DNA of 1,278 nt from a phage. Below are positions 1 to 1,278 of this stretch, in pieces. How positions within the stretch are numbered: the stretch's first letter is position 1; the number at the start of each line of letters is the position of its first letter. The notes beneath the pieces are model-generated. The model did not search any database and had not been told where the DNA came from. It saw only the letters and a list, made by a program, of their open reading frames with translations. A program made the position numbers and the translations under genes. The DNA lies in sequence record MK370060.1. The stretch is one strand, 5' to 3'.

Positions 1-1278
1 ATGTCTAATGTTCAGACTTCTGCTGAGCGTATTCCTCATGATCTTTCTCATCTTGTTTTTGAGGCTGGTAAAATTGGTCGTCTTAAAACTATTTCTTGGA
101 CTCCTGTTGTTGCTGGTGATTCTTATGAGACTGAGATGGTTGGTGCTATTCGTCTTTCTCCTCTTCGTCGTGGTCTTGCTGTTGATTCTCGTGTTGATGT
201 TTTTACTTTTTATATTCCTCATCGTCATGTTTATGGTCAGCAGTGGATTGATTTTATGAAAACTGGTGTTAATGCTACTCCTCTTGCTCCTGTTACTTGC
301 TCTTCTGGTTGGGATTCTGCTGCTTATCTTGGTACTATTCCTTCTACTAATCTTAAAGTTCCTAAATTTCTTCATCAGTCTTATCTTAATATTTATAATA
401 ATTATTTTAAACCTCCTTGGTCTAATGATCTTACTTATGCTAATCCTTCTAATATGCCTGCTGAGGATTATAAATGGGGTGTTCGTGTTGCTAATCTTAA
501 ATCTATTTGGACTGCTCCTCTTCCTCCTGATTCTCTTACTAAACAGGATATGACTACTGGTGCTACTACTATTGATATTATGGGTCTTCAGGCTGCTTAT
601 GCTAAACTTCATACTGAGCAGGAGCGTGATTATTTTATGACTCGTTATCGTGATATTATGAAAGATTTTGGTGGTCATACTTCTTATGATGGTGATAATC
701 GTCCTCTTCTTCTTATGCGTTCTGAGTTTTGGGCTTCTGGTTATGATGTTGATGGTACTGATCAGACTTCTCTTGGTCAGTTTTCTGGTCGTGTTCAGCA
801 GACTTTTAATCATAAAGTTCCTCGTTTTTATGTTCCTGAGCATGGTGTTATTATGACTCTTTCTGTTACTCGTTTTCCTCCTACTCATGAGATGGAGATG
901 CATTATCTTGTTGGTAAAGAGTCTCTTACTTATACTGATATTGCTTGCGATCCTGCTCTTATGGCTAATCTTCCTCCTCGTGAGATTGAGGTTAAAGATC
1001 TTTTTCATTCTGCTGGTACTGGTAAATTTAAAATTGCTGAGGGTCAGTGGTATCGTACTCAGCCTGATCGTGTTGCTTTTCCTTATAATGCTCTTGATGG
1101 TTTTCCTTTTTATTCTGAGCTTCCTTCTAATGATATTCTTGAGCGTGTTCTTGTTCGTACTGATAATTATGATGAGATTTTTCAGTCTATGCAGCTTGCT
1201 CATTGGAATATGCAGACTAAATTTAATACTACTGTTTATCGTCATATGCCTACTACTCGTGATGGTATTATGACTTCT
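1..1278 (+). CDS. F: Major capsid protein F of a Microviridae (phiX174/G4-like) phage; recoded or back-translated sequence. Open at the 3' end: no stop codon in the window.
   Basis: Frame 1 runs 426 codons from ATG at position 1 to the last base with no stop. The translation begins MSNVQTSAERIPHDLSHLVFEAGKIGRLKTISWTPVVAGDSYE and ends TTRDGIMTS. It contains blocks I recall as conserved in phiX174-family F proteins: RLSPLRRGLA, LNIYNNYF, TIDIMGLQAAYA, DNRPLLLMRS, GYDVDGTDQTSLGQFSGRVQQT, PRFYVPEHG, KFKIAEGQWYR. The length is about one residue short of the roughly 427 aa I recall for phiX174 F, and the window ends exactly at the canonical ...IMTS C-terminus. The call rests on recalled protein similarity, not on a database search. 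Confidence 0.93.
   Translation, partial: MSNVQTSAERIPHDLSHLVFEAGKIGRLKTISWTPVVAGDSYETEMVGAIRLSPLRRGLAVDSRVDVFTFYIPHRHVYGQQWIDFMKTGVNATPLAPVTCSSGWDSAAYLGTIPSTNLKVPKFLHQSYLNIYNNYFKPPWSNDLTYANPSNMPAEDYKWGVRVANLKSIWTAPLPPDSLTKQDMTTGATTIDIMGLQAAYAKLHTEQERDYFMTRYRDIMKDFGGHTSYDGDNRPLLLMRSEFWASGYDVDGTDQTSLGQFSGRVQQTFNHKVPRFYVPEHGVIMTLSVTRFPPTHEMEMHYLVGKESLTYTDIACDPALMANLPPREIEVKDLFHSAGTGKFKIAEGQWYRTQPDRVAFPYNALDGFPFYSELPSNDILERVLVRTDNYDEIFQSMQLAHWNMQTKFNTTVYRHMPTTRDGIMTS

Follow-up and report, generated by a model that had tools for sequence, protein, structure and literature searches.

A microvirus capsid gene F written with one codon per amino acid: very probably a back-translation of the gpF protein of phages ID18 and WA14

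The window, by which we mean the whole stretch of DNA analysed here (1278 bases, the exact length of the source window), is taken up from end to end by a single open frame. Frame +1 runs from an ATG through 426 sense codons to a closing TCT (Ser) with no stop along the way, and the protein that it encodes ends in ...TTRDGIMTS (Table 1). Chance alone, given the base composition of the window, would leave 426 codons free of stops with P = 3e-10, which marks this as a genuine coding frame; it is missing from the ORF listing because it overruns both ends of the window. The first-pass annotation had described the stretch as the sense codons of a gene, without stop codon and without flanks, and had placed an ATG at position 1 and a final TCT (Ser) ending at position 1278. 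Translation confirms both termini, and the 426-codon frame does fill positions 1-1278. The C-terminus IMTS, which had been called the expected one, likewise ends the G4 F chain and the phiX174-type F chain in alignments.

Table 1 Features of the window, with positions counted from its first base.
Feature	Position	Strand	Basis
Complete string of 426 sense codons for gpF, the major capsid protein of microviruses, in recoded form with a single codon for each amino acid	1..1278	+	Translation, Pfam, 100% protein identity, 20 codons, exact rebuild
Start codon ATG, matching in position the start of natural F (NC_007856 2556)	1..3	+	
TCT (Ser426), the final sense codon; in the natural gene this codon is TCA and a TAA stop follows, and this TAA is absent in the window	1276..1278	+	
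Sole terminator-like hairpin, with a stem of 9 pairs (3 G-C) and a T-rich tail behind it	757-781	+	
Five ORFs of 26-128 aa, almost all Leu/Phe/Val/Ile/Met	8-259, 266-553, 560-640, 668-856, 887-1273	+ (frame +2)	

The encoded protein belongs to the Phage_F family (Pfam PF02305), whose profile it matches at 527.1 bits against a gathering score of 25 (E = 6e-158). Residues 2-426 align with residues 1-426 of G4 F (PDB 1GFF, E = 4e-273), phiX174 F (PDB 2BPA/1AL0) aligns end to end (E = 8e-195), and alpha3 F (PDB 1M06) is collinear over the full length. With the F proteins of G4 and phiX174 it has the family, the full-length collinearity and the IMTS C-terminus in common, and it differs from both by amino-acid substitutions. 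When 50,697 phage records were searched in translation, 426/426 residues proved identical to gpF of ID18 (NC_007856.1, DQ079908.1) and of WA14 (DQ079909.1), with EMCL318 gpF at 99.1% protein identity in the same search; other G4-like phages reach about 89-90% by tblastn. The source protein is gpF of ID18 or WA14, and the source record could be either, the two not being separable because gpF is identical in both. These phages (Microviridae, Bullavirinae, Gequatrovirus G4 clade) were isolated from sewage in Moscow, Idaho, and in Pullman, Washington, and together with EMCL318 they make up a subcluster within the G4 clade (PMC6316680). Because it matches the annotated capsid protein of ID18 at every residue (100%), the window protein would be expected to form a T=1 capsid of 60 F copies.

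At window positions 1012-1020 (residues 338-340, ...HSAGTGKF...) the protein lacks one residue of G4 F and differs from it by several substitutions: G4 F has HSSPDSAKF (1GFF) where the window has HSA-GTGKF, with the gap at window residues 338-339. The gap and the substitutions are natural features of the ID18/WA14 subclade, in which F is one residue shorter than in G4.

The natural F genes of ID18 (NC_007856.1 2556..3836) and WA14 (DQ079909.1 2556..3836) have the same protein, length, start and last residue as the window, and their natural surroundings are one of the things that set them apart from it. In NC_007856 the F CDS (2556..3836) measures 1281 nt (426 sense codons and the TAA stop), as it does in WA14, and the window corresponds to this full-length CDS minus its stop. 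The last Ser codon of natural ID18 F is TCA, and TAA follows directly. Upstream of F (NC_007856.1 2516-2555), gene J is followed by a terminator hairpin (GGGGCTTCGGCCCC), and an AAGGA ribosome-binding site lies about 7 nt from the ATG; downstream (NC_007856.1 3834-3866) the TAA stop leads into an A-rich F-G intergenic region. The TAA, the ribosome-binding site, the J hairpin and the flanking genes J and G, all present in NC_007856, are absent from the window. There is no sign of a fusion or of a longer protein, since the window protein and the natural protein share their last residue, after which the natural gene has TAA. The first-pass annotation had suggested looking at the adjacent bases, where a long in-frame continuation would point to a fusion; read on the natural homologue, those bases lend that scenario no support. 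Taken alone, the exact CDS boundaries are a weak argument for an engineered origin, because a natural CDS cut at its annotated coordinates would look alike; the decisive evidence lies elsewhere.

At the DNA level the window stands well apart from the genes whose protein it encodes. Its identity to natural F is 84.7% for ID18 and 84.8% for WA14 (about 84.7-84.9%), which corresponds to 194-196 differences over the two phages, and this lies outside the variation of the ID18/WA14 lineage itself, whose two F genes are 8 nt apart (99.4% identity). All 196 differences from ID18 F are synonymous (0/196 non-synonymous): 191 fall at codon position 3 and the other 5 at position 1, each of these five being a Leu codon changed from TTA or TTG to CTT. 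Against ID18 and WA14, 189-191 of the 426 codons (45%) are synonymously replaced, and the GC content is 37% versus 46% in the natural gene. Neither a nucleotide search nor megablast found a phage record with more than 85% DNA identity to the window.

The direction of these replacements is uniform. The window employs exactly 20 codons for 20 amino acids, so that, for example, Leu is CTT in 32/32 cases, Ser TCT in 28/28, Arg CGT in 23/23 and Thr ACT in 37/37, whereas the natural F genes of ID18, WA14, phiX174 and G4 use 51-52 codons (51 in ID18 and WA14). Wright's effective number of codons is accordingly 20.0, the theoretical minimum, versus 37-42 in the same four natural genes, and 347 of the 426 codons (81%) end in T, compared with a T3 of 0.42-0.52 in natural F genes. 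The probability that the window protein would be encoded with one codon per amino acid has a log10 of -92 with the codon frequencies of ID18 F and of -85 with those of phiX174 F. The mixed synonymous usage that is typical of bullavirus genes is absent from the window.

To trace the table behind this usage, we compiled codon usage over all annotated CDSs of each genome for five bullaviruses: phiX174, ID18, WA14, G4 and ID62 (NC_007824.1). The genome-wide top codon of phiX174 is the window codon for 17/17 degenerate amino acids with a unique top codon there, and Met and Trp have one codon each. For Cys, TGT and TGC are tied in phiX174 (13:13, or 15:15 when A* is counted), and the window has TGC, the alphabetically first of the two. 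Writing the ID18 gpF protein with the phiX174 top codons, ties being settled alphabetically, rebuilds the window at 1278/1278 bases, and this exact rebuild is the decisive test of back-translation. Other tables fail as the source: that of ID18 itself mismatches at five amino acids (Asp, Glu, Phe, Asn and Gln), and these five are among the eight mismatching in the WA14 table and the six in the G4 table, while the preferred-codon table of E. coli K-12 mismatches at nine. The table of the alpha3-like ID62 departs from the window at Cys only (TGT 15 : TGC 7); it is slightly worse than that of phiX174 and not strongly excluded. The attribution to phiX174 turns solely on Cys because ID62 gives the same codon elsewhere, and the table is probably phiX174's own rather than a near-identical T-ending one.

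The same tabulation offers a view of codon preference across the subfamily. Apart from Cys, the top-codon table of the alpha3-like ID62 equals that of the window, the phiX174-like and alpha3-like genera being nearly alike in their preferred codons. The G4-like genus prefers GAC, GAA, TTC, AAC and CAA, a clear split in codon preference within Bullavirinae.

No Rfam families and no tandem repeats were found in the window, and both promoter-like sites (6, versus 3.8 ± 1.8 in shuffles) and terminator-like sites (1, versus 1.0 ± 0.8) occur at shuffle level. The single terminator-like hairpin is a chance match in T-rich recoded sequence, since its count equals the shuffle expectation. The five frame +2 ORFs were rejected as genes, 81% of the codons in that frame having a middle T; they are hydrophobic because the T that fills the third position of the real frame becomes the middle of the +2 codons. 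On the minus strand, the antisense frame in register with the gene is open over the whole window (positions 1-1278, 0 stops in 426 codons) and rich in Ile, Ser, Arg and Lys. It is fully open since the gene has no TTA, CTA or TCA among its sense codons, and its codons start with A because most sense codons end in T, so that this frame, too, was rejected as a gene and regarded as a mechanical result of the codon table.

We also searched for the DNA in public collections, using three diagnostic 40-mers, each with 10 differences from the natural gene and each scanned against one collection. Exact scans with one 40-mer apiece gave no match in IMG/VR viral contigs, GTDB genome contigs or JGI metagenome contigs, and megablast of the whole window against PLSDB plasmids gave none either. 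These results bear on whether the window might be a natural excerpt, namely an F gene with extreme codon bias that comes from a G4-like microvirus not yet described and was cut exactly at the limits of its CDS. Such a gene would encode, as the window does, a bona fide full-length microvirus capsid protein, and natural bullavirus genes do favour T-ending codons, as the T3 values of their F genes indicate; but strict single-codon usage has a probability of about 1e-92 under natural frequencies, and complete protein conservation would have to coincide with the change of 45% of the codons, all synonymously and all toward one table, when natural relatives with the same protein are separated by only those 8 nt. 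With no copy among the viral, genome and metagenome contigs, the plasmids or the phages searched, where the best phage DNA reaches 85%, natural origin is effectively refuted, and we assign it a negligible probability.

Among artificial origins, the table and its exceptionless use help to discriminate. Allotting one codon to each amino acid is a known optimisation style that the window fits, and a CDS without its stop resembles an insert for C-terminal fusion, as would be expected of a synthetic gene codon-optimised for E. coli in commercial fashion with the stop supplied by the vector. The codon set nevertheless matches phiX174 instead, 9 of the 20 amino acids having a codon other than the one E. 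coli uses most (window codon/E. coli top codon: Leu CTT/CTG, Ser TCT/AGC, Ala GCT/GCG, Pro CCT/CCG, Gly GGT/GGC, Thr ACT/ACC, Val GTT/GTG, Glu GAG/GAA and Asn AAT/AAC), and no plasmid record in PLSDB holds the window by megablast, so we judge such a gene very unlikely. A codon table equal to that of phiX174 would be accounted for by a capsid gene physically built for a phiX174 chassis, with the ID18 capsid swapped in and written in phiX174-preferred codons, and experiments have already recoded entire phiX174 genes synonymously, F among them (PMC7881332). In that work, Van Leuven et al. 2020 recoded phiX174's own genes toward the most or least used E. coli codons while sparing overlaps, promoters and fragment junctions (PMC7881332). 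Like the window, these constructs carry whole-gene synonymous change in a bullavirus structural gene with the protein kept; unlike it, they concern phiX174's own genes and the table of the host, whereas the window is an ID18 protein recoded in total, without exception, with a phage table. Nor does the window contain restriction or assembly junctions, a stop codon or regulatory sequence, and among the phage and plasmid records searched there is no deposited record of it. A chassis gene of this kind, which differs from the best explanation only in whether the DNA was made, is in our estimation extremely unlikely. We consider it very improbable, too, that the window is a physically synthesised ID18 capsid gene, harmonised to the codon preferences of phiX174 for use in a microvirus of chimeric or designer type and absent from the collections searched.

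The window is not natural DNA but an artificial sequence, a designed or in-silico back-translation, and very probably it is the deterministic back-translation of a known protein record, the gpF of ID18/WA14, with a phiX174-type table of most frequent codons. The first-pass annotation had leaned toward an engineered or back-translated origin, and single-codon usage, synonymous-only divergence, agreement with the phiX174 codon table and the exact rebuild now substantiate that view. Single-codon back-translation with the most frequent codon is done by standard sequence utilities, of which EMBOSS backtranseq with a phiX174 usage table is presumably a candidate. The procedure would have started from the 426-residue gpF record of ID18 (identical in WA14) and would have replaced each residue with one fixed codon, the most frequent in a phiX174-type usage table, to yield a product running from the ATG to the last sense codon without flanks. 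The window has no stop, ribosome-binding site or neighbouring genes because a protein sequence carries none. It resembles the output of standard single-codon back-translation in having one codon per amino acid, a reference table of top codons and neither stop nor flanks, and it regenerates exactly from a known protein. None of the evidence gathered contradicts back-translation. The window was probably produced by software, or designed in this way for synthesis, and a sequence existing only in silico and one physically made would share the same design.

The protein being already known, the window holds no biological novelty, and its relevance is one of quality control, in that it belongs with artificial or control sequences and not with genomic DNA. 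The DNA-level 'signals' within it, among them the extreme excess of T at third positions, the open antisense frame, the hydrophobic ORFs in other frames and any matches resembling promoters or hairpins, are mechanical by-products of the codon table and carry no biological information. Close solved structures exist for gpF, a capsid protein that is well characterised, and expression of the window with an added stop and translation signals would yield the ordinary F protein of a T=1 microvirus capsid.
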